A DNA stretch of 64,000 nt. Origin: Schmidtea polychroa (taxonomy: Eukaryota). The stretch spans positions 15,688,001-15,752,000 of the forward strand of contig CM097885.1 of NCBI GenBank assembly GCA_044892525.1, read 5' to 3'. Below, piece by piece: positions 598-63,219 of this stretch; positions within the stretch are counted from its first letter, which is position 1, and the number at the start of each line of letters is the position of its first letter. The notes beneath the pieces were generated by a model, which was not told the DNA's origin, made no database searches, and saw nothing but the letters and a program-made list of their open reading frames with translations. Both the position numbers and the translations under genes were made by a program.

Positions 598-1928
598 AAT
601 ATAGGCTATATATTACACGTATAGAATACAATATCACCGAAATAACACACATAGAATATAATACACCGAAACCTCCAGCTATAATATAATAACTGGTATA
701 ATAATAGCTATAATAGGGATGATCATTGCCGTGGTCGTTGCCAACGGTAGACAACCCAAATCCACTAGGTATTCATCATCATCTACTTGCCTACCATGGA
801 CCATTATCAGGTATATACCTGTAGTTTTATCGGTAGCAATCACATCTCTCCTCAATATTCTGACTTTGATATAACAGTTAAAAATCATTGTTAATGGTTC
901 TTTTCCAACCATTCGCACGTCCAGATTAATGTTGCCTTGATTGTTAGGCTGACTTCGGATTGTTTTCCCATTTCTCCTCATCAACGCTTCGATTTGCGTC
1001 TGAAATGGGCTTGTTTCTTTTACCACTGGTAGTATAATTGGAATTATTGCTACCAACAAATCTACTGGTATTCGTAATACTAACATCCAGTCTAGTATTT
1101 CTTTTATGGTTTCTCCGTCTCATGGAGAATTTTGTAATTCTAACCCTTGTCGTTGGGATAATTGTTGAGTTTCCTCCAATCTCTCAATTTCCATCTAAGT
1201 AATTAAGAATATACTGTCTTGATACATTACCGCCACTGGCTTCGGTGCTGTCTTTGTTGTGAGCTTCGTCACTCTACCGAGGAGTATCCCGTTCTGTAGA
1301 AGTGTTTGGTTTGCTTCTAGTTTTATTCCACATAAGTACAAGTCATATCATTGATGCTTAATACTTGTCAATGTCTCTGTTAATTTATCTGCTCGACATC
1401 TTGCATTTATATCGAGAATATACTCTTTATCCTGAGGGAGTTTTATATTGAGCTAAGCATCTTGGAGATCTCACTCATTCTCCATGATTTCTTCTAATAT
1501 CCTTAGGATTTTATATGTGTCGTTATGATGCATTGGGTCATCTTCAATCTGCGATATCAGCTTCACTAATGTATCAATGAAAAATATTTATTTTGATATA
1601 TTTTTAATTTGTATTTGTCGTTAAAAATGTTAAAATTTTACATTTCTGTATCAAATTGTAATTTAAATAATTTTGTAATATTTAAAATAAATAAGAAAAA
1701 AATTAGCATTAATAATATTTTGAATTGCTCTAAAAGCTAAAGAACAATATTTATAAAATGTTTGTTTCTCTACTTCAAAATACAAATTATAAATATTGAA
1801 ATTGTAAACGTCAGAGGAAATAATTAATATAATAAGTATGATTATTGAAATGTTGTAAAATGTTGAAATATTTTGATAATTTTGTTAATTTTAGAGTTAA
1901 TTTTATAGTTTGTTAATTTTATAGTTAA

Positions 1929-3525
1929 ATGTTGGCAAGCGTATGGGAAATGATGAAGAGGAAAGAATTTGAATTTGATAATGAAATCAGCAGTGAATTG
2001 ATATGCAGAATTTGCAAATGTTTAATGATAAAAGCTTGCCATGCTCCTTGCGTTTGTGGCTTTTGTTCTGATTGCATTGAAAATTATTTGGATGGAAAAG
2101 ATAAATTCTGTCCAGGAGCAGCAAAACATTGTAGAAAGAAAATGATCAATTTCAATAAAGATGTTTCTGAAGATCATGCAGCTAATTTAAGGATTTCAGA
2201 AGTGGTAGTGAGATTCCCAATGCAAAATTGTCAATTTAAAGATGAATTAGAGGTGATGGAGAGCCACATGAGAACATGCAACAAGCAACCAATAAAATGT
2301 TTATTCAATAGAATCGGATGCGAAATGAATGAGGTGGTAAAGGATGAAATGAAAGTCCATCTCATTGAGAACACTGAAGGCCATAGCAAATTATTGATTG
2401 ATCAGATCAGTAATTTGTGCAATGAGATGCAAGCAATGAGAGACGAGAATGTGACATTGTGTAATGAAATTATCAATATCAATGTAAAATTGTATTTGCA
2501 ATTAATTTTATTGATATTTAGGATTGGAGGTGAAATTGTGCAATATTGAAAAGAAAGAGACTGAAAACAGAGAAGATATAGAAGAATTGAATGAGGAAAT
2601 GGTGGCATTGAAGAATGAGAACCGCTCATTGAGAATGGATATGGAGACAAATATTGGATCAATCAATCAGGTTTGATTATTGATTTGATTTGATATTGAT
2701 ATGTTATTGATGGAAAGCAGGTCAGACAGCAAATTGAAGTGATTGAATCAAAATGTCAGCAGCAAATTGATGAGATGAAAGAGAAATGCGAGCAGCGGCT
2801 GCAACAGGTGAATGAAAAGGTGATTTATTGATTTATTGAAATGTTTGAATTTGAGATTCAGTTGCAGCTTGAAATGGCGAAATGTGCCAATGAAATTCGG
2901 CGGAATGAAACAAAATGTCAACAGCAAATTGATGAGATGAAAGAGAAATACGAGCAGCGGTTGCAACAGGCGAATGAAAAGGTGATTTATTGATTTATTG
3001 ACATATTTGAATTTGAGATTCAGTTGCAGCTTGAAATGGCGAAATGTACCTATGAAATTCGGCAGATTGAAACAAAATTAGCAAATGAAAAATATGTAAA
3101 TTACGGATTTTTTGAATGGGAAATCGATAAATTTTCACAACAAAAGAGAAGTAAAAATATTTACAACAAAAGCGTTTTTTTCGGGACTAATCGGTTACAA
3201 AATTTGCTTGTGGGTGCTGATTGATGGTAATTGGGGTATTGGGGCTGGTTTCTGTTTGGTGCGTGGGGCAAATGATGAGCAATTGGATTGGCCGTTCAAT
3301 CAATCCGTGACAATCGATGTGATCGATCCAGCAAATGGCAACATTTATATGAGGAAGTCAATGAAATATTCAGATAGCCCTCTTGATGCAGCTGGATGGA
3401 GGAAACCTTCACACGACAGAAATAATTCAATTGGTATTTATTATTATCCTGATGCCAGCTCAATCTATAAATTAGCAGCCAAAAGTAATAAATTGCTGCT
3501 CAGGAGCAGAATTGAAAAATTATGA
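1929..3525 (+). pseudogene. TRAF-family paralog 1 (RING, 2 TRAF zinc fingers, coiled coil, MATH), probably frameshifted
   Basis: RING CRICKCLMIKACHAPCVCGFCSDC..CP and MATH motifs FFEWEIDKFS, GYKICL, RGANDEQLDWPF. Phase-0 introns of 42-50 nt. An extra A in an A-run near 3165-3171 splits the MATH domain across two ORFs. C>F change in the first zinc finger (RFPMQNC). Confidence 0.85.
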
Positions 3526-6500
3526 CAAATTTAAAAAAACATTTATATAAAAAATTGATTTATTTTGGGTTTTGATTTGTTTTATTATTTGCCTTTTTAT
3601 TATAGCAAATTGCCGATTGCAATATCAATAATATTGCAAAATCAAAAATATTTAATATAAATAATTATTTTAATTAAATTAATAATTAATTTGAAATTAA
3701 ATTTAAATTCACCCGATTATAAGCGCTGACAAATCGCCTCAACAAATCAAACGCTCCTATGACGAGTGAAACCGACGAGAAAACCGCCGCTGATGTTATA
3801 TGAGTTTTGGAGAAATTATTGTTGCATTGAATGGCAATAAAATGCACTTAAATGCAATACTAAAACTGTTATATCAAATTGATAAATGCCTTAACATTTC
3901 ACTAGCTATTTCTGAGGCATTTAAACGGAAATCCGCAACAGCAATGCTGACAAAATGTTCGAAAATTGCTTTCACATCTGTTTGGGTAGTAATTGTATTT
4001 GTACTGAGATCCTTTTTAAGTGCTAGTGACCTGATTTAATATTAAATAATGTAACATTTCATAAATTTATTCACTTTTTCATTCGCTAAATTTTCAAATT
4101 AAAACAAAAAAAGATTTCATGTAAATTAATATTTAAATTCACAAATTTTGATACATTTTATGAATGAATTTTACTTATTAACAAACAACGAAATTTATCT
4201 TGAAATCTTGAAAATATTTTGGAATTATTTGAAAATATTATTCACTTATTTGAAATTATTTTGGAACCTGGATTAATTAGGTACATCAGAAGTTGAAGGT
4301 TGTTAAAGTCAAACTTACAAGTTTTGGGATCAGTGGCTTAACCAATGAGGTGGGTTAAGGGGGTTAAACCTCCCATTGGTTTTTAATTGTACAAATATTT
4401 GTCGATGTCAAGTGCCTAAAAGATCATCCATCTACATAAGAAAAAAACAAGACACTTACTATATTTTATTGTAAATATAATACTGTGACATATGTCTGTA
4501 CTTTGTAGTCTATACTCTCAGTTAAATTTTATTTTGGCTATTTTTTTCTGATGTTCAATACGTATCTCCGTACTTTATGGAGTAAGCGAATGACGTCATT
4601 ATTACAGACACCCCTATCATGAAGGTCTTAGTGCCTTCGACACCCTCAAAAGTCAACGCTTGAAATGATTGACCATATTATTAATAAATATTTCTCAACT
4701 CCAATCCCCTCACATTCATAAATTCCTGGTTACGTTGGAATATTAAGAGTTTTGGTTGGCAAATAACTCAGAATTTGGCAAGTATGTTTTTTTAATGTCT
4801 TAGTAACTGATAGATTTATCATTAGCTCTTACTTAAACGCCTCAATGGATATTTTACATTTTACCATAAATATACCCATGCCAACCACCTTATTTCGAAT
4901 GTACACAGTAGTTGAAAATCATTTAGCAGGTGAGCTCAATTTAGAAAGATGGGTTACGAGTTGGGAGAACAATTTATGCTTATCCTTGCAAATGTAGGCC
5001 TTTTCCTGCCGTTGCTTACACTTTACCGTATTTCATTCGTAACTCCGCATAACTATTGATTTTACCGCTAAATGCCCATCGCAAGCGACACTGGTGTTTT
5101 AATTTAGTTGGTCACCATCAACTAAAGGTGGAACTTTCACAAAAACTGAAAAAGCACACACTTTAATGAAACAACCACAACTCCTTTGCTCTACGCATTG
5201 CAATATCAGTCTGAACCCTTTGAAGGAATTAATCTCCCTACGGAAGATGTCCGTGTCTGGTACTCTCGATTCGAAAATATATCGTTATCACTAAGTTTAA
5301 TTCTTCTTTGCTTGTTCTTTCTAGATTATCTCTTTTCGTTTCTTCGACCTACTGGCGTTTCTGTTTACTTGCAGGTCGCCTTTAAACCCTTCGGGTAATT
5401 TGATTGTCCTTGGCAAATTATTTTGGATCCATTTTTAACGGTGATTGGAAGTCGAATTTTATGAATCAGAGTGAAGGGAAATTTGCAATAGTTGGGGAAA
5501 ATCGAACATAATATTCCAAATACAAATTTATCCTGCATAGTGAAGTGAAATGAGGTATGACATAGAATGGAACCAGATGAGTCAGTAGATAATAGGTTTC
5601 AAATAAAATCCAGTACTTCGTTATGTCGGCTAATGCAATTAATATCAGTGAAATCGTACTAATTCCAAACGAAGATCGAATATTGCTCCTGCCGGGCTGG
5701 AAACCGAGGTAATCAAAAAACTTTTGTAAATTTAAATTTTCCATAAATTAATTAAAGATAACCCTGTATTAACATAAATTGAGGTAATCAACCAAATGTA
5801 AGGAAAATAAAGAATAAAATAGAGGAAAAATAATAGAATAAATCAAAAATTAAAACAAGTCACTAAAATAAAATAAATAATAAACAAGTCGCAAACAGAC
5901 AAAAGTACATAACCATATCCGACAAGCAAAGAAAAAATAATTAGAAAGAATAAAAATAAATACCAGAAAAACAAAATATTACTAAACGAATAAATTATAA
6001 TCAAAAAACAAAGAATAAAATACTAAATCAGGATCCAATAAAAAGCAGGAGAAAATGTGAAAATTAAATTATTTAATAAATTATCAAAAGAAAAAGATAA
6101 ATAACCTGGAAAAAGAACTTAAAAATAAGAAAAAACACAACTTCACACAACAGCTGGATCCTGATTAGACAAAAATTACTATATAACGAAAACACTTTAT
6201 TGATTCCCTCAGTTCTAACAAACTTCATACAGGAACCAATTCAGCATCACTCTCATTGATCTATTACTTGATTCTTATATTATATCGCAGCAAATTTTCA
6301 GAATTTTTATCAATCAGACAGGAAAAGAGAAATGTAAATTTTCGTTTATTATTTATGTACAAGTAGCATTATAATTTATTTGGATAAATATTATGATAGT
6401 TTTTAAATGTCTCACTTTTATCTTCACAATACGAATTTTTATGTTGAGATCCAGCGATGACACCGTTCTACGATTATGAGGGTTAGAATGCGAAAAGCCG

Positions 6501-9045: not shown

Positions 9046-10353
<1,308 letters not shown>

Positions 10354-10371
10354 TGGTAGCAGAGCGTGGTT
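10354..10371 (+). promoter_or_regulatory. Primer-binding site, tRNA-iMet type
   Basis: TGGTAGCAGAGCGTGGTT directly after the LTR CA; complementary to the animal initiator tRNA 3' end (..CTCTGCTACCA). Confidence 0.85.
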
Positions 10372-13300
10372 CCGGCTAGCCAGCCGGAACAAGGTAATAG
10401 ATGATTATATAATGTATTTTTTGTATTTACGTGATTATTTTGTGAATTATTTTATGAATTATAATATGTGTTATATTTTTATTGTTGAAACATTTCCCCT
10501 AGGGCCTGCCCTCCCTAACCCCATTAGAGGTGGATTGGCGCGGGTATTTGTCAAAATAATAACAGGGAAGACAATTACTCTCGAAGTTGAATCTAGTGAC
10601 ACGATAGAAAATGTTAATGCGAAAATACAAGATAAAGAGGGTAGTCCACCTGACCAGCAACGATTAATTTGCGCGGGAAAACCATTAGAAGATGAGCGAA
10701 CATTATCTGATTATAATATTCAAAAGGAGTCTACTTTGCGTTTAGTTTTGCGATTGAGGGGTGGAATGCAAATATTCGTGAAGACACTGACAGGAAAAAC
10801 AATAACTTTGGAAGTAGAATCAAGTGATACTATTGAGAATGTAAAGGCTAAAATTCAAGAAAAAGAAGGGATACCCCCAGGGCGACAAAGACTTAATTTT
10901 GCCGGGAAAGTATTAAAAGATGGCCTAACGTTGTTAGATTATAACGTTAGGAAAGAAGCCACGGTACATCTGGTTTTGGGGCTGGCAGGGGGAAGTCCAG
11001 TATCAGATGCGGAGTTCGAGGCGGGGTACAAGAGACGAACCGGGTGGAAGATTTCGTTAGGGCGTCTACGTAACCGGGCCTTAGGAGATGGATCGGACCC
11101 TGGGGAAGATCAAAGGAGAATGGAGGCTTACGAAGATATGTATGAGGAAGTCATAAACGAATTGGAGGACCTGAGGAATAATGCTCGGGAGTTAGGGCGG
11201 GAGAAAGAAGAAAAGGAAATTGAGGCAGATCTGAAACGGTTAGAAGCGGATTTCAGCAGAATCGGCGATCTGGTCCTCACGCAGAAGGAAGAGAGTTTTA
11301 GAGTAGAGTCGCGGAAGGGCACAGAAAAATCATTTAGGAGCGAAGAGCCCAATGAGAAACAGAAGTGCATAATGGGTTTGAAACCCTTGCAGCTGCCGAT
11401 CTTTAATGGAAAGGTAATAGAATATCCTGGATGGAGGGCAATTGTGAGAGCCTGCATCGAGGACACGGATGAGCCGAGTGAAAGAAAGTACTTGTACCTG
11501 AGACAGTACTTGGAAGGGAAGCCGCTGCAATTAATTGCCTATATTGGATATGGCTCGCAGGCTTTCGAGGCGGCGATAAAATTACTTGATGAAAGGTATG
11601 GGGGACCAGAAAGATCCTATTCCATGATGCTGGATGCGGTGCAGAGGTTCTTCCCAGTGAGGCTCAACGTCTTGGAGGACCTAGAGCGGTTTGAAGAGCT
11701 GCTAGGAAACCTCATCCTGAATTTCAAGGATCAGAAGAGGGAAGGCGAGTTAAACAACGGGATGTTGTATCACCAACTGCTGAAGAAGCTGCCAGAGACC
11801 ATGCTGATTCAGTGGTCACGCCATTGTGATTCGGGGAGAGAGGGAAATGTGCAAACGCTAGCCGAGTGGATCAAAACGGAAGCTAATAGGCATCGGCAAG
11901 CAATGAGCATTCTGTTTGGAGAAGGGCGGGCAAAAGGTAGAACTGTCGCCCCAACAACTAACTTCGGAAATGCGAATAGGGGCACGAAGTTAACGGATAG
12001 TAGGCGCAAGATAGAGGTTAGCAGTGCTCGAAAAAAGGAACCAATTTGTGTGAAATGTGGTTCAGAACATTATTTAAATCAATGCTCAGAGTTCCTAAAG
12101 CTGACTGTTAAGGAACGAAATGAGTTTGTGACCAAGAAGCGGCTTTGTTACAATTGTCTTACAACAGCTCACATGGTTAGAGAATGCGAAAAACCGAGCT
12201 TTTGTAAGGACAGAGATTGTACTCGAAAGCATCACAATTTGCTCCATGGCTCAGAGAACAAAGTTGATGGAGATCAAGAGCCGAGCAATGAGAACACATC
12301 AATGATGACGGTTCAAGATACACAGAGGAAGAAGATGTATGTTCCTTTACGAACGATTACAGCAAAGTTGATTAATAAAGGAAAGGCGGTCAAGATCAAC
12401 GCATTGCTAGACGACGCTAGCAATGTTAGCTATATTAGCGATTGGGCGGCGCAAGAACTGGGGTTGGGAGGACAGTGGCAAAGCACTCCAGTTGGCGTGA
12501 TTGGTGGACAATCACAAATGTTGGAAACGAAGCCCGTGACGCTATTATTGGCAAGCAACAATAACAATTTAAAGGTAAATTTGAACGTCCTGGTGGTAAA
12601 AAAGGTCACTGGAGACCTGGGAATGTGTAACTGGAGGAAGTTATCGGCGAAATGGAAGCATCTGCGATATATAAACTTCCCGGTTATGAATACAAGGACG
12701 CAGATTGATGTATTGATTGGTTCTGATTACCCATATCTACATCGATCTATTTGCGAAGTAACAGGAGCAAAGCATGAACCAATTGCAAGGTTGACGCCCC
12801 TCGGATGGACATGTCTTGGTAGGATTGCAAGAAATCAAGCTCCAAGATGTTCGCATTTGGCTCAGAGTTATTTTGCGGTAACGGAAATGTTAAACGACGG
12901 AGAAATGATTATTCATGATGTAGATAATTCTGAAGAAATGGATTATATTAAAGAATGGGATAAAAACGATGAAACACATGAAAACAAAAAGGCTAGCGAA
13001 GATGGAGATAGGGAAAGCAATGAATGTGAGAATTTACAATCTAGCGATATTATAAATCAAGATGGAATAGAGCAAAATCGAGTCAATGAGAACGAGAATA
13101 ATTATTCTGAATTTGTAAAAAGTAATACTGAACTATTAGGCAAAGCTTTTGATAAAGGAGACCAAGTTACAGCAGATGAGTTAGAAAATATTGTCAAAAG
13201 TCACAATCAAGAAGAAAATTTTGAAAGTAAATATGATGAAACTGAAGTAGATGTGTCAGACAAGAATGAAAATTATAATAGTCATGTAGGCACAGAGGTT

Positions 13301-13857
13301 GTCGACATTAATGTTATCGAAAGACCGAATTCTTTGGTAGAAGATAATTTTCAAAACATGGAAGACGTAGTTAATGTTCAAACGGATTCTGCTTCTTCAG
13401 AAAATCATTTAGAAACTGATCGAATTATGCCAGATTCTGAGAGCAATGACAGTGATCTTAGAGTCGATATTGGTAAAGATCATACATCCGACACAGCTAA
13501 AGATTCTGAACAAAATACATTCACTCAACCAACGTCTGCTTTAGATGATATCATTGAAGACTATTCACCTGGTTCCCCTTTATTAAATGAGATGCAACAG
13601 GGAAAAGTGGGGACTATTGAATTGGTGAAACATGCAGGAAGGATAATGGAGATATTGCAGCGAAACAGAATGAAAAGTGGCAGGGGCTTGGTCGAGTATG
13701 GCGATGGTGGGAGGAGAATCCACCATGATGTATCCAGAAAAGTGCGTGGTGCGGTGGCCTTTACCATAGCAAGATGGGTGTGTGAGGGGTATTGGAGAGA
13801 GGCAAAAGGAAAGGTTCCCCTGAAGTAATTGGGTGGTTGATCCGCTAGAAGGGATCA

Positions 13858-13870
13858 AGGAGGGGGGAAA
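13858..13870 (+). promoter_or_regulatory. Polypurine tract
   Basis: AGGAGGGGGGAAA abutting the TG of the 3' LTR. Confidence 0.88.
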
Positions 13871-14735
13871 TGTTTCGACCAGTCAGAGGGGGATTGCCTC
13901 TGACTGGCATTTATTCGGTTTCTTTTTCTATCGCGTCTGTGTGCGCGGTCTGGTTAGACCGAATATTGTTGGTGTGCGCACACAGACGCGAGCAATGGAT
14001 TGTTGTTTGGAAGTAGGTTTTGATGTAATTTTTTATTGAATTGATTTTTGATGTATTTTAATTAGAAATTCGAGATTTGAATGGATTGTTTTGTGGTTTA
14101 AAAAAGGTAAAATTCTGGAAGGGAGGAAACCAGTTTTGTTTATTGAAATAAGTTTTGGAATCGAAATGTTTGAAGAAGAAGATGTTGATTACAAATTTAT
14201 TAAAGCTTATGATGTTCCAAACCAAGATCTTATTTCTTATTTCGATGAAACCCGTGAATTCATTGAAAATGGCAGAAAATTTGGTGGAGTATTGGTTCAC
14301 TGTCTTGCTGGAAGATCAAGAAGTGGAACTATTTTGACGGCTTATTTAATGAAACATTTTAAAGTTGGTCCAAACGATGCGATTGAGACAATTAAGGAAA
14401 AGTCATTTATATGTCCAAATGATGGATTCATGAAACAATTAAAGATATATTTCAACATGAATTGCAGTGATGAAATCAACAAATGCGCAAATACAGTTTC
14501 TCAAGCTCAATTTAAGTTATCAGCATCTTCAAAAGATTTAGTTCAATTCAAATGTAGAAAGTGTCGATTTTTATTATTCGACAATTCAAGTGTTGTTGAG
14601 CACAGTAAAATGAAAGCTTCGAAAGCAATAAATGAAAGCACAATTTGCAATGAGGAAATACTTATCGAAGCTCTTCCTTGGATTGATAGCAGCAATGCAG
14701 ACGGGGAAATGAAAATGACAGTGTTAAAGAATAAA

Positions 14736-14738
<3 letters not shown>
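13871..14738 (+). repeat. 3' LTR with a second DUSP12-like copy; last ~26 bp missing
   Basis: Matches the 5' LTR except for a 16-bp indel and one SNP seen (T9918/C14329). Runs into (ATT)n right after AATAAA. Confidence 0.92.
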
Positions 14739-18872: not shown

Positions 18873-19235
18873 TATCTTTTCTTGTTTGTTTATTTATGAT
18901 TCTTTCAGTTTGTTTCACGATTTTTTCTTCTTTCTGTTTTGTTTCTTGACATTTTGATTTTTGTGTCGCTTGTTTTTCTTACCAAAATTTAACCGTTAAT
19001 TTTAAGGGCTAAAGGTCAGTGTCAATGTATACCTTGATGTAAATAAATAAATATTACAATATTTGTTTACTATTATCAAGATTTAACTACAAATGGATTA
19101 GCATGAATAATAATTTTTCAACTTCCTATAATTTCGTAAACATTATATTTATTAAAAAACTTGACCTATTGTGGATAACTCATGGTGCATGTGATGGTGG
19201 ATGTATAATAAATATTAATAATAAATATTAATGAT

Positions 19236-20107
19236 TGTTTCAGCCGATTTTGGATGATTTTTTTTGTATCGCGTCTGTGTGCGCACACAGACGCGAGTAA
19301 TAGGTAATTTATATTTTATATGTTATAAGTTATGTTTCTGTAGTAATAGATTTAAATCGATCTTTAATTTGTGGAATTTGGTTTTGATGGTTTGTTAATG
19401 GAAGAGCAGGAATCGTTTGTTTGAACTGGTAAATTGTGTAGAAATTTTGGATTTTTGTTTTTTAGTTGAAACATGGAAGAAAATGAAGGCCTGAAATGTC
19501 GTCTTCCAATGAGCAATATAGCGAAGATTATTTTCTCACCTGAAGGGAGATCATTCCAAGTCGAATATGCATTTAAGGCAATTGCATTAGATGGATTGCT
19601 TTCCGTTGGTATTCGAGGCAATAATGGTGGTGTAGTAGCTACACAAAGAAAAGTTCCAGATAAAATGATTGAGAAGAGTTCAGCTACAAGATTGTTTAAT
19701 ATTACTGAAAGTACTGAATGGGTTATGACTGATATGATCCCTGATTGTCGATCTCAAACATGTCGTGCACAAATGGAAGCAGATCGATTTAAATATAAAA
19801 ATGGATATGAAATGCCTTGTGACATAACATGTCGTTGTATCGCGGATATTAATCAGCTCTACACCCAATCGGCTGAGATGCGACCATTAGGTTTATCAAT
19901 GATAGCATTATCTTATGATATTGAAATGGATAAACCGTTATTATTCAAAACTGACTCCAGTGGCTTTGTAACTGGACATCGAGCTGTTGCAGTTGGTGGG
20001 AAGCAATTGGAGGCTAAAAGTTATTTGGAAAAGAAACTACGTAAAAATAGAGCGTGTGAAACTATCAAATACATAAAAATCTTTTTGACGTGTTTTAGAC
20101 GAAAACA
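19236..20107 (+). mobile_element. Solo LTR (872 bp) related to the DUSP12 LTR, carrying a proteasome alpha ORF
   Basis: TGTTT...AAACA ends; 6-bp target-site duplication AATGAT (19230-19235 and 20108-20113); shared TCGCGTCTGTGTGCGC/GCGCACACAGACGCGA palindrome; CATAAA 30 nt from the end. Confidence 0.82.
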
Positions 20108-20165
20108 AATGATAATAATAACAAATAATAATATTAATAATAATGATAATAATAACAAAAAATAA
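19473..20165 (+). CDS. PSMA6: Intronless, truncated proteasome subunit alpha type-6-like ORF (LTR cargo)
   Basis: IFSPEGRSFQVEYAFKAI, TQRKVPDK, RFKYKNGYEMP, ADINQLYTQSAEMRPLG, SYLEKKL. Native N-terminal tail and C-terminus absent; no stop inside the LTR. Confidence 0.88.
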   Translation: MEENEGLKCRLPMSNIAKIIFSPEGRSFQVEYAFKAIALDGLLSVGIRGNNGGVVATQRKVPDKMIEKSSATRLFNITESTEWVMTDMIPDCRSQTCRAQMEADRFKYKNGYEMPCDITCRCIADINQLYTQSAEMRPLGLSMIALSYDIEMDKPLLFKTDSSGFVTGHRAVAVGGKQLEAKSYLEKKLRKNRACETIKYIKIFLTCFRRKQMIIITNNNINNNDNNNKK

Positions 20166-21605
20166 ATAATAATAATAAGAATAATAATAATAATATAAAA
20201 CGAAGATTCCTTGCCAGTAGCATCGATTAAAAATAAAATAATTAATAAATAAAGTTCTAAGATTTCAGTGCAAATTTCATATTTAATAAAAAAATAAATG
20301 AGAATTTTCGACTATGAAATAATCTTATTTAATTGATTGAAAAATAAATAATAAAATTCCACTACTGGTCAATGTAGGCAAGGTGATTGCTCGCCATATA
20401 TTCTCAGGAAATGGCCATAGTTTGCCTTTTGATGGACATGAAGGACATTTTGTATCCGGCTATTGCTGGAGGTAATATTTTATATGGATGACACGTGTCA
20501 GCTGCCTGAGAGCCACAGGAATATCCTAGAAGGCCACTATTAGCATAGAAAGGAACTTATTTACTCCTTCACTCACCAATGAGAATGAATAATAATTTAA
20601 CATTATGCCATTTTCGCATCTAATGCTTTACTGATCCATCTCAGCCATGTAGAGGCGCCATTGAAAGCTTGGTCAGACCGCGTGCCAATACTCATGCTCA
20701 TTGCGGAAAATCCAGTCAAATCGCCTTCATTGCCCTCATAAACATTACACAAATGCACTCAGTCTGGGACACATTTCTCGCTATCCGTTCTGAGTAAGCA
20801 TCCGTTTGTACAGCTCCTTTCATGCATGCCATCTGATATGTCAGTGTGGGATCTTGTCTGTGTACAAGTTTCCACACCTTTAAATTGAGGATCTAGAAAG
20901 GATAAAATCAAATTCCTAATAAGTCACGTCACAATGTATCAATGCGTTCGATGAAATAACAAAAAACAATGAAAGATGACCACGACTACTGTTGAATGAC
21001 ATCAGAATGGTCCTGACAATTGCTCAATGGTGTCCATTAATTGGATTAATATTAAAAAATATAAAACAAATGTTTGATTTTTTGCTGAATCTGCTGTGAC
21101 CGATTTCTGTGCCATATTTATGTACATCTATCAAAACATACACTCTCCAGGACATTCACTAGCACAGTGAACTACAATTTGATAGAATCAATTTAATTAA
21201 GTGTCAATTAGGCATTGCATTGATCACAGATTTCATAAAATTATACAAATATTCGTTACAATTTAATTTTTTATTGTGTTAAATCTAATCCAATTTATCA
21301 ATATTGCTTTGTGCATTTGATGTTTTATCATTGCAACTATGTCACAATAAAATGTTATAAAATTATAATTTAAATAATTTTGTAATATTTAAAATAAATG
21401 AGAAAAAAATTAACATTAATAATATTTTGATTTGCGCTAAAAGTTAAAAAACAATATTTATAAAATGTTTGTTTATCTACATCAAAATACAAATTATAAA
21501 TATTGAAATTGTCAACGTCAGACGAAATAATTAATATAATAAGTATGATTTATGATTGTTGTAAAATGTTGAAATATTTTGATAATATTGTTAATTTTAG
21601 ATAAA

Positions 21606-23465
21606 ATGTTTGCAATCGTATGGGAAATGATGAAGAGGAATAAATTTGAATTTGATAATGAAATCAGCATTGAATTGATATGCAGAATTTGCAAGTGTTT
21701 AATGATAAAAGCTTGCAATGCTCCTTGCGGTTGTCGCTTTTGTTCTGATTGCATTGAGCAATATTTGGATGGAAAAGATAAATTCTGTCCAGGAGCATCA
21801 AAACATTGTGGAAAGAAAATGATCAATTTCAAAAAAGATGTTTCTGAAGATCATGCAGCCAATTTAAGGATTTCAGAAGTGATAGTGAGATGCCCAATGC
21901 AAAATTGTCAATTCAAAGATGAATTAGAAGTGATGGAAAGCCACATGAGTACATGCACCAAGAACACTGATCAGATCAGTAATATATGCAATGAGATGCA
22001 AGCAATGAGAGATGAGAATGTGACATTGCGTAATGAAATTATCAATATCAATGTAAAATTTTATTTGTAATTAATTTTATTGATATTTGTGATTGTAGGT
22101 GAAACAGAGCAATATTGAAAGGAAAGAGGCGGAGAACAAAGGAGAAATAGAAGAATTGAATGAGGAAATGGTGGCATTGAAGAATGCGAACCGCTCATTG
22201 AGAATGGATATGGAGACAAATATTGGATCAATCAGTCAAGTTTGATTATTGATTTGATTTACTATTGATTTGTTATTGACGCAAAGCAGGTCAGACAGCA
22301 AATTGAGGCGATTGAATCAAAATGTCAACAGCAAATTGATGAGATGAGAGAGAAATGCGAACAGCGGCTGCAACAAGGGGATGAAAAGGTGATTTATTGA
22401 TTTATTGAAATATTTGATTTTGAGATTCAGTTGCAGCTTGAAATGGCGAAATGCGCCAATGATATACGGCAGAATGAATCAAAATATCAACATCAAATTG
22501 ATGAGTTGAAAGAGAAATGCGAGCAACGTTTGCAACAGGTCAGACTGCAAATTGAGGCGATTGAATCGCCTCAAATGAGAGAAATAATTCAATTGGCATT
22601 TTTAATTATTATCTTGATGCTCATGGCAGCTCAAATTCGGCAGAATGAAACAAAATGTCAACAGCAAATTGATGAGACGAAAGAGAAATACGAGCAGCAG
22701 TTGGAACAGGGGAATGAAAAGGTGATTTATTGATTTATTGAAATGTTTGAATTTGAGATTCAGTCGCAGCTTGAAATGGCGAAATATGTCAATGAAATTC
22801 GGCAGAATGAATCAAAATATCAACATCAAATTGATGAGATGAAAGAGAAATACGAGCAGCGGTTGCAACAGGGGAATGAAAAGGTGATTTATTGATTTAT
22901 TGAAATGTTTGAATTTGAGATTCAGTCGCAGCTTGAAATGGCGAAAAGCGCCAATGAAATTCGGCAGATTGAAACAAAATTAGCAAATGAAAAATATATA
23001 AATTATGGATTTTTTGAATGGCAAATCGATAAATTTTCACAAGAAAAGAGAAATGAAATTATTTACAGCGAGGCATTTTATTCCGGGCCAATCGGTTACA
23101 AAATGTGCTTGTGGTTGGGGACTAGTGGTGATTTGTTTGGGATTTTTAATTGGGTTAATGTTGGTTTCTGTTTGATGCGTGGGGCAAATGATGAGCAATT
23201 GGATTGGCCGTTCAATCAATCCGTGACAATCGATGTGATCGATCCAGAAAATGGCAACATTTATATGAGCAAGTTTATGAAATATTCAGATCGCCCTCTT
23301 GATGCCGGATGGAGGAAACCGTCACAAGACAGAAATGATCCAATTGGCATTTATTATGAGTATTATGATGTCAGCTCAATCTATAAATTAGCAGCCAAAA
23401 GTGATAAATTGCTGCTCAGGTGCAGAATTGAAAAATTCTTACAAATTAAAAAAACAAATCAATAA
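21606..23465 (+). CDS. TRAF-family paralog 2, apparently intact (~545 aa, 6 exons)
   Basis: Exons 21606-22052, 22099-22239, 22290-22388, 22431-22721, 22764-22883 and 22926-23465 splice in frame without stops. The second zinc finger is deleted in frame. Confidence 0.85.
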
Positions 23466-24427
23466 AAATTGATTTATTTTGGCTTTTGATTTGTTTTATT
23501 GTTTGCATTTTTTATTATATTTATTATATGAGATAATTATTGTGGTAATTATTGTCATTCTCGCCTTCCATCCGATATCATCATCACTTGGCGGAGCGCT
23601 CACAGCAAATTGCCAATTGCAATATCAACATCAATTATATAATTAAATAAAAGCAATTTAATTAAATCAAAACATTTAATATAAATTTGAATAATTATTA
23701 TAATTAAATTAATAATTAATTTGAAAGAAATGAAATTAAAATTCACCCGAATATAAGCGCTGACAAATCGCCTCAACAAATCAAACGCTCCTATGACGAG
23801 TGGAACTGACGAAAAAACCGCCGCTGATGTTATATGAGTTTTGGATAAATTATTGCTGTACTGAATGGCAGTAAAATGCACCTAAATGCAATACTAACAC
23901 CGCGTTATATCAAATTGAATTCTTTGAATTTTACTTATTAACAAACAACGAAATTTATCTTGAAATCTTGAAATTATAAAAAAGGGGATCATTTAGGAAA
24001 TTTATAAATGAGGTTTTAAAGTGAAGTTGAGTCCAATACCTAATCTACATCAATACCTTGTGGTGATAAGTGACGGTTATGGAGTTTAAGGCGGGGGGGG
24101 GTTATTTATAAAATTTATAAATTATAATCTTAAATTAAACGTAAGTTGAGCATACATAATAAAGTAATTTACATTAGCGAATTTGGTACTTGATTGATGG
24201 TCATATTACTTGAGGGGCATAAATGAAATTATAATTTTAAAATTCAAAATTTTAATTAGACATTTCTAAGAAAACAATTTACATTAATACATTTAGGATG
24301 AGATTAGTAGCAGTGGCACTTTAAGAGGTCAAAAATAAAATTTGTAAATTAATATTTTAATTCTCAAATACAAGATGAATAAATATATAGATAATCTATA
24401 TTAGGGAAATTCTTAATAAGTAGATGA

Positions 24428-26678: not shown

Positions 26679-28346
26679 TGTAGCCATCCAAATATTAAAA
26701 TATAAAATGTTTTAATATTAGGATAGTTTGTTTAAATATTCAAACATTGTTATTAAAATATAATTTGAAATGTCAGCGTAACCATGAACGGTGCGATGGA
26801 AGCCTTCAACCAATATCATTTTTCTCAAGGAAACTCAGCTCAACAGAACAAAAATATTCAACATTTGACAGAGAGCTGCTTGCAGTTTACCTGTCCGTTA
26901 AAAATTTTAAGCACTACCTGGAATCAAACGAATTCTGTCTAAAAACTGATCATAAGCCGCTCATTCACATGAGTTCGATGAAAAACCCTTCAAATCGTCA
27001 ATGGCGATGGATCAACTACATTTACCAGTTTAACTTCAACATTCATCACACAAGAGGTCAAGACAATCAAGTTGCTGACTTTCTATCGCGACAAAGGGAG
27101 ACAGAACCTCAAGAAGCCATAGTTAATAATATCAAGCTAACAGAATTAATTATCCAACAAAAAGACGAATCCTTTATTAAATCACTGAAATCAACGACTT
27201 TGAAGTTACAGGAAACTGAAAATGGCGTTCTTGTTGATGTCAACAACAACATCGTCAGGATAATTCTACCCGAAGTCTTTAGACGGCTAGAATTCAACCG
27301 TCTACATAACAGGCGCCACCCTGGGGCAAATGCGACGATCAAAATGATTAAACAGAAATATGTTTGGCCAAAAATGAGAAGTCAGATACGTAAATGGTGT
27401 AAAGAATGCGAATCATGCCAAAAGAACAAGATAAATAGACATACTAAATCAAAACTAGGACAACTACCAGACAGAGGTAAATTTAAAATAATTCATATTG
27501 ACATAGTAGGTCCATTGCCCTCAGTCAACAACAAAAGGTTTCTTTTGACAATCATTGACAGATTCTCCTCATGGCCGGAAGCTTTTGCAATAAATGAAAT
27601 AAACAGCTCAAGCATAGTTAATATACTCGAAAAAGAATGGATTCCTCGATATGGAGCGCCAGAAATTGTCATTACTGACAATGGCAGACAATTTGTCTCA
27701 TCAACTTTCAAGGAGCTGTGCTCAAAATATGCCATCGAACATCGACATACAACTGCATACCATCCTCAGTGTAATGGCAAAGTCGAAAGATGGCACAGAA
27801 CATTAAAAGCAGCTCTTCGAACACATTCCGACAATGCCAATAGAAGTTGGGCTAACGACATACCGGCAGTTATGCTTGGCTTAAGAAACGTCACATCAGA
27901 AGAAACCGGTCTATCACCAATGCAAGCGGTTTTTGGAACCGATTCCAGAATGCCAGGTGACATCGTACTAAAAAAATTGAAGAAACGCAAATGCAACGAA
28001 AGGTCATACTTTCCGAAAGAATTAAAAACATGCAGTCACGTATGGATGGTCAAAGAATCAAGGTCTTCCCTTCAACCAATATATGAAGGACGCTTCAAGG
28101 TCATTAGTCGCAGTGAAGATTTCAAAACATATCAAATTGAACAAAATTCAAAGATAGTCAGAGTCTCAGTTGACAGACTAAAAGCCGCATTTTCAAGTTA
28201 AGATACTCCATAATCTACGTTGGGGGTTTATGTAGCCATCCAAATATTAAAATATAAAATGTTTTAATATTAGGATAGTTTGTTTAAATATTCAAACATT
28301 GTTATTAAAATATAATTTGAAATGTCAGCGTGTTCTTCTCCCAACA
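26679..28346 (+). mobile_element. Internally deleted Ty3/Gypsy element with 116-bp LTRs
   Basis: Truncated 5' LTR 26679-26779; 3' LTR 28231-28346 (TG..CA); 5-bp target-site duplication ATAAG; G-tract before the 3' LTR. Confidence 0.92.
26747..28201 (+). CDS. Gypsy RNase H plus integrase (partial pol)
   Basis: YSTFDRELLAV, TDHKPL, HHCC motif, IHIDIVGPLP, TDNGRQF, NGKVERWHRTLK. Confidence 0.9.
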   Translation: MLLKYNLKCQRNHERCDGSLQPISFFSRKLSSTEQKYSTFDRELLAVYLSVKNFKHYLESNEFCLKTDHKPLIHMSSMKNPSNRQWRWINYIYQFNFNIHHTRGQDNQVADFLSRQRETEPQEAIVNNIKLTELIIQQKDESFIKSLKSTTLKLQETENGVLVDVNNNIVRIILPEVFRRLEFNRLHNRRHPGANATIKMIKQKYVWPKMRSQIRKWCKECESCQKNKINRHTKSKLGQLPDRGKFKIIHIDIVGPLPSVNNKRFLLTIIDRFSSWPEAFAINEINSSSIVNILEKEWIPRYGAPEIVITDNGRQFVSSTFKELCSKYAIEHRHTTAYHPQCNGKVERWHRTLKAALRTHSDNANRSWANDIPAVMLGLRNVTSEETGLSPMQAVFGTDSRMPGDIVLKKLKKRKCNERSYFPKELKTCSHVWMVKESRSSLQPIYEGRFKVISRSEDFKTYQIEQNSKIVRVSVDRLKAAFSS

Positions 28347-47900: not shown

Positions 47901-48267
47901 ATTTCCCCAAATTTTAAAAGCTCCTAAAATTAATTTTCGCAAAAAATAACGTAATTTTATATATGGTCAAAATTAACTTGTAAATTTTTTTTAAAATATT
48001 ACTTTATTATAGGAAATCAACCGTATAGGAAATATACAAGATTATTACAAGAAAAATCTTCCCAACTCAAATTATTACACAAATGCACTCAGTCTGGGAC
48101 ACATTGAGGAGCCATTGAAAGCTTGGTCACACCGCGAGCCAATACTCATGCTCATTGCGAAAAATCCAGTCAAATCGCCTTTATTGCCCTCATAAACATT
48201 ACACAAATGCACTCAGTCTGGGACACATTTCTCGCTATCCGTTCTGAGTAAGCATCCGTTTTGTACA

Positions 48268-49408
48268 GGTCATAGTAAATTATTGATTGATGAGATCAGT
48301 AATATATGCAATGAGATGCAAGCAATGAGAGATGAGAATCTAAAATTGCGTAATGAAATTATCAATATCAATGTAAATTTGTATTTGTAATTAATTTTAT
48401 TGACATTTGTGATTGTAGGTGAAACTGGGCAATATTGAAAGGAAAGAGGCGGAGAACAAAAGAGAAATAGAAGAATTGAATGAGGAAATGGTGACATTGA
48501 AGAATAAGAATCGCTCATTGAGAATGGAGATGGAGACAAATATTGGATCAAACAATCAAGTTTGATTATTGATTTGATTTGCTATTTATTTGTTATTGCT
48601 GCAAAGCAGGTCAGACAGCAAATTGAAGTGATTGAATCAAAATGTCAACAGCAAATTGATGAGATGAAAGAGAAATGCGAGCAGCGGCTGCAACAGGGGA
48701 ATGAAAAGGTGATTTATTGATTTATTTAAATATTTGAATTTGAGATTCAGTTGCAGCTTGAAATGGCGAAATGCGCCAATGAAATTTGGCGGAATGAAAC
48801 AAAATGTCAACAGCAAATTGATGAGATGAAAGAGAAATGCGAGCAGCGGCTGCAACAGGCGAATGAAAAGGTGATTTATTGATTTATTGAAATATTTGAA
48901 TTTGAGATTCAGTTGCAGCTTGAAATCGCGAAATGCGCCAATGAAATTCGGCAGATTGAAACAAAATTAGCAAATGAAAAATATATAAATTACGGATTTT
49001 TTGAATGGGAAATCGATAAATTTTCACAACAAAAGAGAAATGAAAATATTTACAGCAAGGCATTTTATTCTGGACCAATCGGTTAGAAAATGTGCTTGAG
49101 GGTGCTGATTGCGGGTTATGGCTGGTTTCTGTTTGATGCGTGGGGCAAATGATGAGCAATTGGATTGGCCGTTCAATCAATTATTGACAATCGATGTGAT
49201 CGATCCAGCAAATGGCAGCATTTATCAGGGCAAGTCAATGAAATATTCAGATTTGCCTCGTCATGCCGGATGGATGAAACCGTCAAATGACAGAAATAAT
49301 CCAATTCGCATATATTATGGCCCTGGTGCCAACTCAATCTATCAATTAGCAGCCAAAAGTGATAAATTGCTGCTCAGGGGCAGAATTGAAAAATTCTTAC
49401 AAATTTAA
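48268..49408 (+). pseudogene. TRAF-family paralog 3, 5'-truncated
   Basis: Lacks RING and zinc fingers; TAC>TAG at 49084-49086; frameshift in the MATH variable loop. Confidence 0.88.
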
Positions 49409-59200: not shown

Positions 59201-60936
59201 ACCCGTTTGCACTGAATAAGCTCATCTGTAATATGGGTTGGTGTGTACAATCCATTATATTACAGATGCGTCATAATCTGTGATGTATTTCAGATGGAAT
59301 TTTTGGGTTTTAGGTAATTTAAGTCGGTAACATCTGACTCCTCGTGTGCTTTTAATCAAAACAATAAACTACCTAACGTATATTTGAATCACAAAAATAA
59401 AAAAAAAATCACAAAAAAAGGCAAAATGCTGATTAGTATCACGAATTTTGATGAGGGAGACAAAGTGATTCACGGTAACGGAAGGCTCACACAACTGACA
59501 CAACAGCGCATAATTAATGGAATACAAAGACATATTTGCTGTCTCAGATTTAGGTTTGGGTTAATAATTTAACATTATACCATTGGTGCATCTAATGCTT
59601 TACCGATGTAGAGGAACCACATGCCAATAGTCATACTGATTGCGAAAAATCCAGTCAAATCACCTTCATTGCCCTCTTAAACATTACACAAATGCACTCA
59701 GTCTTGGACACGTTTCTCGCTATCCCTTCTGAGTAAGCATCCGTTTTGTAGAGCTCCTTTCATTCATGTCATCCGATATGTCAGTGTAGGATCTTGTCTG
59801 TGTACAAGTTTCCACACCTTCAAATTGAGGATCTAGAAAGGATAAAATCAAATTCCCTCAACTCGTCATTAATTCATATTCATACACAAGGTAACACCAT
59901 AGGTAATACTTAGCTAAATATTTTATGCGAATGATTCTTCCTTTCATAATATTGACGTTTGTAGGCTACGGAATAAGTGATATGCAATTATATTTGTATC
60001 ATTGTTGATAAAACTTGTGGCCCCCATTCCCTCCATTTACCATGTCAGTTACTGTCAAATACTTTATTCTGCAATGGCATAAAATCCTTCATTCATTAAA
60101 CAAATATGGAAGACTAAATAAAATAAGCGTTTCCAAAGCATTTATCACACTGGGCATGGATATAGATGAATGCTACTGACACCCTGTGATCTATTCCATC
60201 AACTTTTACACATTCGCGATTGTAGGAAGAACTCTTGATAGAAACCCCTAATATGTCACGTCACAATGTATCAATGCGTTCGATGACACAACAAAGAACA
60301 ATGAAAGATGACCACGGCTAATACATACACCCTCCTATTGGATAGAATCAATTAAAATTTCGTGTCAATTAGGCATTGCATTGATCACAGATTTCATAAA
60401 ATTATAGAAAAATTCGTTACAATTTAATTTTTATTGTGTTAATCTAATCCAATTTATCAGTATTGCTTGGTGCATTTGATATTTTATCATTGCACCTTTG
60501 TCACAATAAAATGTGAAAATGTCAATATGGGGCTCACAGGAACCTTGTACACATTAGAAAATGCCTGACAAATATTTGTAACCATGACGAGATCATTAGA
60601 TCAATATATTAGCATTTTTTGAAAATTATTTATTTTTATATTTTGATATAATTTTAATTTGTATTTGCCGTTAAAAATGTTAAAATTTTAGATTTTGTTA
60701 TAAAATTGTAATTTAAATAATTTTCTAATATTTAACATAAATGATATTAATAATATTTTGATTTGCGCTAAAAGCTAAAACACAATATTTATAAAATGTT
60801 TGTTTATCTACATCAAAATACACATTATAAATATTGAAATTGTCAACGTCAGAGGAAATAATAAATATAATAAGTATGATTTCTGAATGTTGTAAAATGT
60901 TGAAATAAATTTATAATTTTGTTATTTTTAGATAAA

Positions 60937-62538
60937 ATGTTTGCAAGCGTATGGGAAATGATGAAGAGAAAAGAATTTGAATTTGATAATGAAATCAGCA
61001 ATGAATTGATATGCAGAATTTGCAAATGTTTAATGATAAAAGCTTGCCATGCTCCTTGCGGTTGTCGCTTTTGTTCTGATTGCATTGAGCAATATTTGGA
61101 TGGAAAAGATAAATTCTGTCCAGGAGCAGCAAAACATTGTGGAAAGAAAATGATAAATTTCAATAAAGATGTTTCTGAAGATCATGCAGCCAATTTAAGG
61201 ATTTCAGAAGTGATAGTGAGATGTCCAATGCAAAATTGTCAATTCAAAGATGAATTAGAAGTGATGGAGAGCCACATGAGAACATGCAACAAGCAACCAA
61301 TAAAATGTTTATTCAATAGAATCGGATGCGAAATGAATGAGGTGGTAAAGGATGAAACGAAAGTCCATCTCAATGAGAACACTGAAGGCCATAGCAAATT
61401 ATTGATTGATCAGATCAGTAATTTATGCAATGAAATGCAAGCAATGAGACACGAGAATGTGATATTGCGCAATGAAATTATCAATATCAATGTAAAATTG
61501 TATTTGTAATTAATTTTATTGATATTTGTGATTGTAGGTGAAACTGGGCAATATGGAAAGGAAAGAAGCGGAGAACAGAGGAGAAATAGAAGAATTGAAT
61601 GAGGAAATGGTGGCATTGAAGAATGAGAATCACTCATTGAGAATGGAGATGGAGACAAATATTGGATCAATCAAAAAAGTTTGATTATTTATTTGATTTG
61701 ATATTGATATGTTATTGAGGCAAAGCAGCTCAGACAGCAAATTGAGGCGATTGAATCAAAATATCAATAGCAAATTGATGATATGAAAGAGAAATGCGAG
61801 CAGCGACTGCAACAGGGGAATGAAAAGGTGATTTATTGATTTATTGAAATATTTGAATTTGAGATTCAGTTGCAGCTTGAAATGGCGAAATGCGCCAATG
61901 AAAAACGTCAGATTGAATCAAAATGTCAACAGCAAATTGATGAGATGAAAGAGAAATGCGAGCAGCGACTACAACAGGAGAATAAAAAGGTAATTTATTG
62001 ATTTATTGAAATATTTGAATTTGAGATTCAGTTGCAGCTTGAAATGGCGAAATGCGCCAATGAAATTCGGCAGAATGAAACAAAATTAGCAAATGAAAAA
62101 TATATAAATTATGGATTTTTTGAATGGCAAATCGATAAATTTTCACAACAAAAGAGAAATGAATATATTTACAGCGAGGAATTTTATTCCGGGCCAGTCG
62201 GTTACAAAATGTGCTTGAGGGTGAGCATTGAGGGTGATTTGGTTTGGCCTGGTTTCTGTTTGATGCGTGGGGCAAATGATGAGCAATTGGATTGGCCGTT
62301 CAATCAATCCGTGACAATCGATGTGATGGATCCAACAAATGGCAACATTTATATGAGCAAGTCAAGGAAATATTCAGATTTGTCCCGTGATGCCGGATGG
62401 GGGGAACCTTCAGATGACAGAAATGATCTAATTGGCATTTATTATTCTATTGGTGATGGCAGCTCAATCTATCAATTAGCAGCCAAAAGTGATAAATTGC
62501 TGCTCAGGTGCAGAATTAAAAAATTCTTACAAATTTAA
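60937..62538 (+). pseudogene. TRAF-family paralog 4 with a nonsense codon in exon 3
   Basis: Full RING, zinc fingers and MATH; CAG>TAG at 61768-61770. Confidence 0.82.
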
Positions 62539-63219
62539 AAAAACATTTCAATAAAGAATTTATTTTGGGTTTTGATTTGTTTTATTGTTTGTCTTTTTTT
62601 ATTATATTTATTATATGAGATTATTATTGTGGTAATTATTGCCATTCTCGCCTTCCATCCGATATCATCATCACGTGGCGGAGCGCGCACAGCAAATGCC
62701 AATTGCAATATCAACATCAATTATATAATTAAATAAAAGCAATTTAATTAAATCAAAAACATTTAATATAAATTAATTTGAATGATTATTATAATTAAAT
62801 TAATAATTAATTTGAAAGAAATTAAATTAAAATTCACCCGAATATAAGCGCTGACAAATCGCCTCAACAAATCAAACGCTCCTATGACGAGTGGAACTGA
62901 CGAAAAAACCGCCGCTGATGTTATATGAGTTTTGGATAAATTATTGCTGTACTGAATGGCAGTAAAATGCACCTAAATGCAATACTAACACTGCGTTATA
63001 TCAAATTGATAAATGCCTTGAAGTTTCGCCAGCTATTTTTGAGGCATTTAAACGAAAATCCGCAACAACAATACTGATAAATAAAATTTGTAAATTAATA
63101 TTTTGATTCTCAAATACAAAATGAATAAATATATAGATAATCTATATTAGTGAAATTCTTAATAAGTAGATGACTCCTAGCAATATACGAAGCACTCAAA
63201 CACTTCCAATATTTTCTTA

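Follow-up and report, generated by a model that had tools for sequence, protein, structure and literature searches.

The ubiquitin unit that directly precedes Gag in a group of BEL/Pao LTR retrotransposons ends in a Leu-x-Gly-Gly junction which, by the sequences compared here, is deeply conserved, and this ubiquitin-Gag junction is the principal finding of our analysis. The most probable reading, to which we assign a probability of roughly 0.65, is that this unit is cut at its C-terminal end by a host protease, probably one of the FUBI-eS30-processing type, so that Gag is freed from a host-derived cargo upstream. The copy under study is a 5.3-kb non-autonomous element with a single ORF, located in a window of 64,000 nucleotides of Schmidtea polychroa DNA. 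It contains two ubiquitins in tandem (Ub1 and Ub2), and of its three Gly-Gly junctions only the one between Ub2 and Gag is deeply conserved.

Structure of the element and its families

The ORF (9641-13828) translates as one open frame of 1395 residues, with 10520-10993 inside it. The frame runs from the 5′ LTR, with its piece of a DUSP12-like mRNA, through the primer-binding site (PBS) into Ub1, Ub2, Gag and protease. The features are:

9476..10353 (+): 5′ LTR (TG...CA, 878 bp), holding the ORF start and captured cargo; direct repeat of 13871-14738
9755..10293 (+): first in-frame ATG and captured DUSP12-like mRNA fragment, an exchangeable cargo (Pfam DSPc, E 7e-21)
10319..10324 (+): AATAAA near the LTR 3′ end, likely polyadenylation signal; Asn-Lys in the ORF
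10354..10371 (+): PBS, which we take to match initiator tRNA-Met; abuts the LTR CA and is translated in frame as HGSRAW
10372..10522 (+): hairpin, then donor-like AAG/GTA (GT at 10394) and a hydrophobic, AT-rich linker that varies but stays in frame
10523..10534 (+): IRGG, first Gly-Gly junction, not conserved
10538..10765 (+): Ub1, ending LRLRGG (10748-10765)
10562..10859 (+): captured host tri-ubiquitin tract, from Thr9 of unit 2 to Gln31 of unit 3, which gave rise to the tandem
10766..10993 (+): Ub2, ending LGLAGG (10976-10993), its C-terminal half the element's own ubiquitin; likely processing site 10993/10994
10994..12230 (+): BEL/Pao Gag with helical N-domain, DUF1759 (Pfam) and Cys-His knuckles, without a start codon of its own
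12330..12870 (+): aspartic protease region with LDDAS at 12401-12421, read from the translation and delimited only approximately
12892..13590 (+): second captured host mRNA piece, in frame, replacing RT/RNase H/integrase
13857..14738 (+): polypurine tract and 3′ LTR, which begins at 13871 and has lost its final ~26 nt to an ATT microsatellite

The two LTRs differ by one substitution and an indel near the start. The cargo includes the catalytic motif HCLAGRSRS (9887-9913) and a CRKC zinc-domain start, and a host-like contig parts from the element sequence after 10293. The second captured piece was recognized from contigs of 2.2-2.4 kb, which match 12892-13590 and then diverge on either side; it gave no Pfam match.

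The window copy has the TG...CA LTR pair, the PBS and the polypurine tract of BEL/Pao elements, and its DUF1759 Gag, which also has the Cys-His knuckles of the group, precedes an aspartic protease. RT, RNase H (Peptidase_A17) and integrase, in the order PR-RT-RH-IN, are absent from it, so it is non-autonomous; they are present in a sister family sharing the PBS and LTR motifs, and in the distant relatives P0125-P0129. Clear 5-bp target duplications flank six of the 20 sister copies checked, and the window copy and several others sit in ATT repeats, where a target duplication cannot be read. Several insertions (among L031-L050 and L071-L090) lie, like the window copy, in (ATT)n/(AAT)n microsatellites.

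The family of the window copy (family A) is large, with 188 exact matches of PBS plus downstream hairpin in a genome of 781 Mb with four large contigs. Set against 188 exact PBS matches and 550 candidates, the loci analysed cover a part of the family, and they were partly picked by likeness to the window. Family B, the autonomous sister, has one ORF of up to ~2200 residues from LTR to integrase, in which a single diverged ubiquitin ending LRLCGG precedes Gag; Gag and protease of the window copy are ~37% identical to those of family B. A single ubiquitin is also found in one family-A copy, L202. Most of the protease is missing at 8 of 20 longer family-A loci, which nevertheless retain the Ub2-Gag junction. 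The copies in this genome are young (93-100% identical), partly recombining, and include segmental duplicates, so conservation within a family is weak evidence.

Five near-identical copies of the window insertion (99-100%), likely segmental duplicates, occur at G000:C1 15.64-16.05 Mb and on C707, one of them with a frameshift in the linker. Elsewhere in the window, 19235-20165 has an LTR-like start with the family hairpin followed by a proteasome alpha-subunit fragment; it is 82-92% like sister LTRs and is probably a solo LTR with different cargo. A different repeat, built of 162-bp tandem units and weakly matching a TRAF zinc finger, is present in four copies, at 1649-3900, 21356-23900, 48100-49400 and 59600-63000, and an RNase H-integrase fragment of a further LTR element, Gypsy-like by its Pfam families, at 26699-28201.

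LTR cargo and the read-through frame

Of 135 copies, 92 have the frame of Gag open for at least 150 aa before the PBS, the corresponding counts for the other two frames being 2 and 0. The cargo encoded there varies between copies and is often mosaic, with pieces of DSP phosphatase, proteasome alpha subunit, Rab-type GTPase, TCP-1 chaperonin, EAP30, adaptin, LIM and cofilin; Pfam matches were obtained for 15 of the 21 own-genome upstream peptides scanned. The phosphatase-like part of the window copy lies within both LTRs and has an intact catalytic motif. Its DSPc match is partial (profile positions 37-131 of 133), the HC motif is deleted in frame at 8 of 30 loci, and sister copies carry unrelated cargo; a complete DUSP12-type domain with HCx5R under constraint is thus not what is found. 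The phosphatase is, to judge from these comparisons, one among many interchangeable LTR fragments, and the selected feature is the read-through into Gag. An earlier note on this DNA had seen release of the phosphatase as the purpose of the arrangement; since the cargo is interchangeable and the HC motif is lost at 8 of 30 loci, the purpose is more likely to be the freeing of Gag.

The frame is also kept between the PBS and Ub1, where distances of 184, 190, 196, 199, 202, 214 and 469 nt preserve one common frame in 28 of 30 loci. The peptide GSRAW from the PBS recurs in the distant relatives P0125, P0127 and P0128. In L026 and L202 a fragment, presumably eIF4A-like, has been captured in frame between PBS and ubiquitin, so capture is not confined to the LTR.

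Of 135 copies, 113 have A[AT]TAAA 20-50 nt upstream of the PBS, where any other 30-nt window gives 0-25, and AAGGTA follows the PBS in 86 of 88. The conservation of AATAAA ~35 nt before the LTR end (10319-10400, 135 copies) implies a long R region holding the cargo. By analogy with retroviruses, where a U1-based suppression of the 5′ poly(A) site is reported (PMC3694450), the conserved donor-like AAG/GTA just after the PBS could act via U1 on the poly(A) site of the 5′ LTR. No spliced joint at the donor-like site appeared among the contig matches listed for either family, and its nearest acceptor would shift the frame. No sequencing run is on record as RNA; the contigs of a presumed-RNA run cover all 30 bins of families A and B but are uninformative on start, strand and level, and we do not count them towards expression. 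A membrane anchor in the hydrophobic linker was considered and is not supported (best 19-residue hydropathy 0.6-1.8 in seven proteins, 1.0 in the window copy). Apart from the local hairpin, the predicted RNA fold of 10340-10560 has no special stability (z -0.57).

The tandem ubiquitins and their Gly-Gly junctions

The ubiquitin identity of the region is not due to chance (Pfam E 2e-53, two stretches). Ub1 is identical to host ubiquitin at 65 of 76 positions, lacks the Met, and has 11 changes including K27N, I36S, F45C and G53E. Ub2 is identical at 62 of 76, the 14 changes including I44N, R72G and R74A; R72, R74, E51 and I44 are all missing from it. Translation bears out the earlier note as to the motifs IRGG, LRLRGG and LGLAGG and as to the I44N change and missing tail arginines of Ub2. 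Its further observation, that the two units differ at many synonymous sites around a common 15-residue peptide, is likewise correct (pS 0.86, pN 0.17); these are the differences of neighbouring host polyubiquitin units.

At the DNA level Ub1 matches unit 2 of a single host tri-ubiquitin gene at 94% and the other 17 host units at 74-80%. For Ub2, identity to host unit 3 is 91-96% over the first half and 65-70% over the second. Along its 298 nt the tract 10562-10859 shares 96% identity with the host, against 67-69% in both flanks, from which we infer that the element's single ubiquitin gained one unit when the template switched into host unit 2 and, from within unit 3, back again. Ub1 is thus mostly a recent and decaying capture of host tri-ubiquitin mRNA, the tandem being incidental. 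In P0126, a distant relative, a partial host polyubiquitin unit stands before the element's own ubiquitin, apparently as an independent parallel.

Polymorphism also separates the two units. Among the 52 distinct sequences of 59 copies, the variants common to at least four comprise 12 nonsynonymous and 6 synonymous in Ub1, 5 and 12 in Ub2, and 24 and 64 in Gag (Fisher p 0.002 for Ub1 against Ub2 plus Gag and 0.04 for Ub1 against Ub2, in copies that are young, partly duplicated and recombining). By these counts Ub1 is under relaxed constraint and Ub2 is constrained like Gag.

The junctions were counted in alignments of at least 80% identity spanning all seven codons, merged by genome position. 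At IRGG, which stands one extra residue before the ubiquitin register and has no ubiquitin fold upstream, Gly-Gly is present in 48 of 63 family-A copies, and 13 of 63 share an IKNKL-type allele. The IRGG and IKNK alleles (10523-10531 against L202 and 12 other copies) differ at five positions, by G/A changes only, a pattern more like the result of editing or hypermutation than of selection on the protein. At the end of Ub1, Gly-Gly is present in 51 of 63; the canonical LRLRGG-M occurs in the window copy and 49 of 63 copies, and G76V, the substitution used in the laboratory to block cleavage, is shared by 10. In five of the six G76V copies checked the LTR pairs are 99.1-99.9% identical, one with a 5-bp target duplication, so these copies moved recently. 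The Gly-Gly between Ub2 and Gag is intact in 57 of 63, the losses being two single substitutions and four deletions in the G run, with no shared amino-acid-changing allele. In family B the ubiquitin-Gag Gly-Gly is found in 63 of 66 copies, with a common synonymous polymorphism. An upstream FKGG is kept in 61 of 67 family-B copies; a second cut site there is possible, and the case is not a simple one.

Distant relatives were sought with Gag-only protein queries, which gave 64 and 35 hits; queries that included ubiquitin were swamped by polyubiquitins and proved uninformative on the clade. Nine relatives have a ubiquitin or ubiquitin tail directly before Gag (the tail only in P0123 and P0124, from incomplete records), some of them with in-frame PBS peptides and cargo of their own, such as a TRAF finger or an HSP90 piece. 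L-x-G-G directly precedes Gag in all 11 members of the clade, families A and B among them (P0001, P0002, P0123-P0129, P0350 and P0358), x being A, C, K, L, F, Q or R. Arg74 is retained in one of them and Arg72 in three. The Gags of these members are only 29-40% identical, except for three closer pairs (50, 54 and 64%), their ubiquitins are 24-82% identical to host ubiquitin, and the sole invariant residues of the eight full-length units are L43, G47, L50, L73, G75 and G76. Among 52 BEL rows (P0001, P0002 and P0123-P0172, the 14 weakest of the 64 hits being left out), a quick tree search places nine of the 11 members in one clade with SH-aLRT 98, P0001 on a long branch and two later-found members absent; PF00240 is on record in none of the 43 non-clade rows.

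The Gly-Gly aligns with the start Met of ordinary BEL Gags, and the Gags of families A and B have no Met there. The residues following it in the 11 members are S, N, S, S, G, G, M, G, V, M and Q, that is, never Pro or a primary or secondary N-degron residue, classes that make up 73% of the next 15 residues (test post hoc). In a structure model (mean pLDDT 88) the ubiquitin fold is joined to the Gag helices by a low-confidence linker, residues 72-80; this linker, which contains the Gly-Gly, is predicted to be exposed.

Probable processing of the polyprotein and comparison with known systems

Two properties of a ubiquitin-type processing signal are seen at the Ub2-Gag junction: a conserved C-terminal Gly-Gly with no Pro after it (11/11 members), which IRGG and the Ub1 end do not have, and a ubiquitin fold directly before the released protein, as indicated by Pfam, the model and the position at the start of Gag. 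A third, the canonical LRLRGG tail read by general DUBs, is lacking in Ub2. The proposal of the earlier note that captured ubiquitin serves as a BVDV-like signal for host proteases is therefore supported for this junction rather than for the two that are polymorphic among sister copies; the junction it had thought might stay uncut is the conserved one.

We propose that the RNA would start near the 5′ end of the LTR and be translated from the LTR ATG, one frame joining the host-gene cargo to a degenerate ubiquitin and Gag. A host ubiquitin-type protease would cut after the L-x-G-G of Ub2, so that Gag(-protease), and in autonomous copies Gag-Pol, is parted from the cargo and Gag has an N-terminus of its own. 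Both Ub1 and IRGG would be passengers; cutting at Ub1 may occur in LRLRGG copies and would not be needed. Without R72, R74 and E51 the freed unit may also escape conjugation by E1, which needs R72.

The enzyme would be one that tolerates the missing tail arginines, as the FUBI-eS30 processing enzymes USP36 and USP16 do. General USPs are disfavoured by the loss of R72, R74 and E51 from Ub2. For instance, E51N or R72A is reported to inhibit USP2 (PMC3215745), and a partial reaction of USP42 with Fubi probes is described as requiring mutations such as L72R (PMC10611586); Ub2 may thus be a poor substrate for most USPs. Human FUBI-eS30 is reported to be cut by USP36 (PMC8354635), and FUBI to have Leu in place of Arg74 (PMC10611586). 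The ubiquitin-like part of the FUBI-eS30 of the host ends in VPLEGG, with neither arginine. Human FUBI, unlike Ub2, keeps an equivalent of R72.

It is unlikely that the ubiquitin is never cut and forms a built-in domain of a cargo-ubiquitin-Gag fusion, serving as a degron or as an interaction or membrane-trafficking module with the Gly-Gly as a mere flexible linker. The tail arginines are indeed gone in most members, the linker is predicted to be flexible, and an internal Ubi2/SUMO-like domain is reported for Burro elements (PMC6431247). However, variation is free at the I44 surface and through most of the ubiquitin body, and absent at L73, G75 and G76. Integral ubiquitin-like domains usually lose the Gly-Gly, and a capsid protein behind 200-300 residues of arbitrary cargo would be hard to square with assembly.

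Cutting of the site by the element's own aspartic protease, which would make the lost ubiquitin-recognition residues irrelevant, is quite unlikely. The element does encode such an enzyme; against this, proteases of the retroviral type prefer hydrophobic or aromatic-Pro bonds over Gly-Gly, the ubiquitin fold itself is under purifying selection, and the junction is kept at the 8 of 20 longer family-A loci without most of the protease. No element-encoded cysteine protease was found among the Pfam matches of the full-length P0125-P0129 or P0001.

Very unlikely is the arrangement in which all three Gly-Gly junctions are signals, host enzymes freeing an active phosphatase at IRGG or after Ub1 and Ub2 staying on Gag. 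The LRLRGG-M at the end of Ub1, the missing DUB-contact residues of Ub2 and the intact catalytic motif of the window copy would fit it; but the G76V allele occurs in recent insertions, IRGG is replaced in 13 of 63 copies, Ub1 is relaxed, the cargo is exchangeable with its HC motif missing at 8 of 30 loci, and the single-ubiquitin members (L202, family B and most distant relatives) have only a unit of the Ub2 type. That both ubiquitins are neutral captured mRNA fragments with functionless Gly-Gly motifs is highly improbable: it holds for Ub1, in a family that captures many abundant mRNAs, and is largely refuted for Ub2 by the Gag-like constraint on that unit and by its same position and tail across a clade with 29-40% Gag identity.

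Cutting after Ub2 by a host enzyme has its closest parallel in the cytopathic pestiviruses (BVDV Osloss, CP1 and CP Rit), where host ubiquitin mRNA was likewise captured in frame directly before a polyprotein member. There, cellular ubiquitin hydrolases are reported to cut after the captured ubiquitin, giving the authentic N-terminus of NS3, and insertions of one or two copies and of N-terminally truncated units are described (PMC8310069, PMC13517609). The pestivirus insertions are sporadic, near-native ubiquitins in an RNA virus, whereas the unit described here is an old, fixed and degenerate part of a whole LTR-retrotransposon clade, is without tail arginines, divides Gag from a variable LTR-borne cargo, and has a cleavage that is predicted only. 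FUBI-eS30 (FAU) resembles the element in its diverged ubiquitin-like leader with a hydrophobic-x-GG end without Arg74, which in FAU is reported to be removed by USP36/USP16, freeing the downstream protein (PMC8354635, PMC10611586). The unit of the element differs in being much closer to ubiquitin (62/76) and internal to a long polyprotein, and action of the same enzyme would be an analogy.

The element and its autonomous sister share with BEL/Pao elements (Belpaoviridae) the DUF1759 Gag, Cys-His knuckles, protease, TG...CA LTRs and 5-bp target duplications, and the sister also RT, Peptidase_A17 and integrase in one ORF. In ordinary BEL/Pao elements Gag starts at a Met after the PBS, with no ubiquitin, whereas the present clade starts in the LTR and reads through PBS and ubiquitin. 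In LTR-mediated retroposition, too, host mRNA pieces, often chimeric, are reported to be joined in frame by template switching (Tan et al. 2016); those retrocopies are described as lying between discontinuous parts of LTR elements (PMC5131818), whereas the cargo here lies inside both LTRs and is held in the frame of Gag. The Burro elements of Schmidtea are likewise planarian LTR elements whose polyprotein has host-derived domains, including a Ubi2/SUMO-like motif; they are Gypsy elements of >30 kb with an N-terminal Gag followed by the extra domains, and the parts of the account drawn on here describe no processing role (PMC6431247). We found no description of a ubiquitin-Gag BEL/Pao clade in the literature searched, and the ubiquitin domain may already be annotated in Repbase or in the 2018 planarian genome paper and its supplements.

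More tentatively, and at somewhat less than even odds, a host ubiquitin-type protease may make the N-terminus of Gag throughout the clade, with a ubiquitin tuned for cutting and not for conjugation (LxGG kept; R72, R74, E51 and I44 shed) and an LTR that would serve as a translated, exchangeable cassette sampling and shuffling host mRNA fragments.

In pestiviruses, captured ubiquitin serves as a processing signal in sporadic mutants; in this retrotransposon clade it has the look of a fixed and ancient strategy. If this is true, it would explain how 200-300 residues of a changing patchwork of host genes are tolerated before a capsid protein. Assembly of the transposon would depend on a specific host deubiquitinase, which would be open to RNAi in a tractable animal, the planarian, and the clade would offer natural arginine-less ubiquitin substrates for finding enzymes that read LxGG alone.
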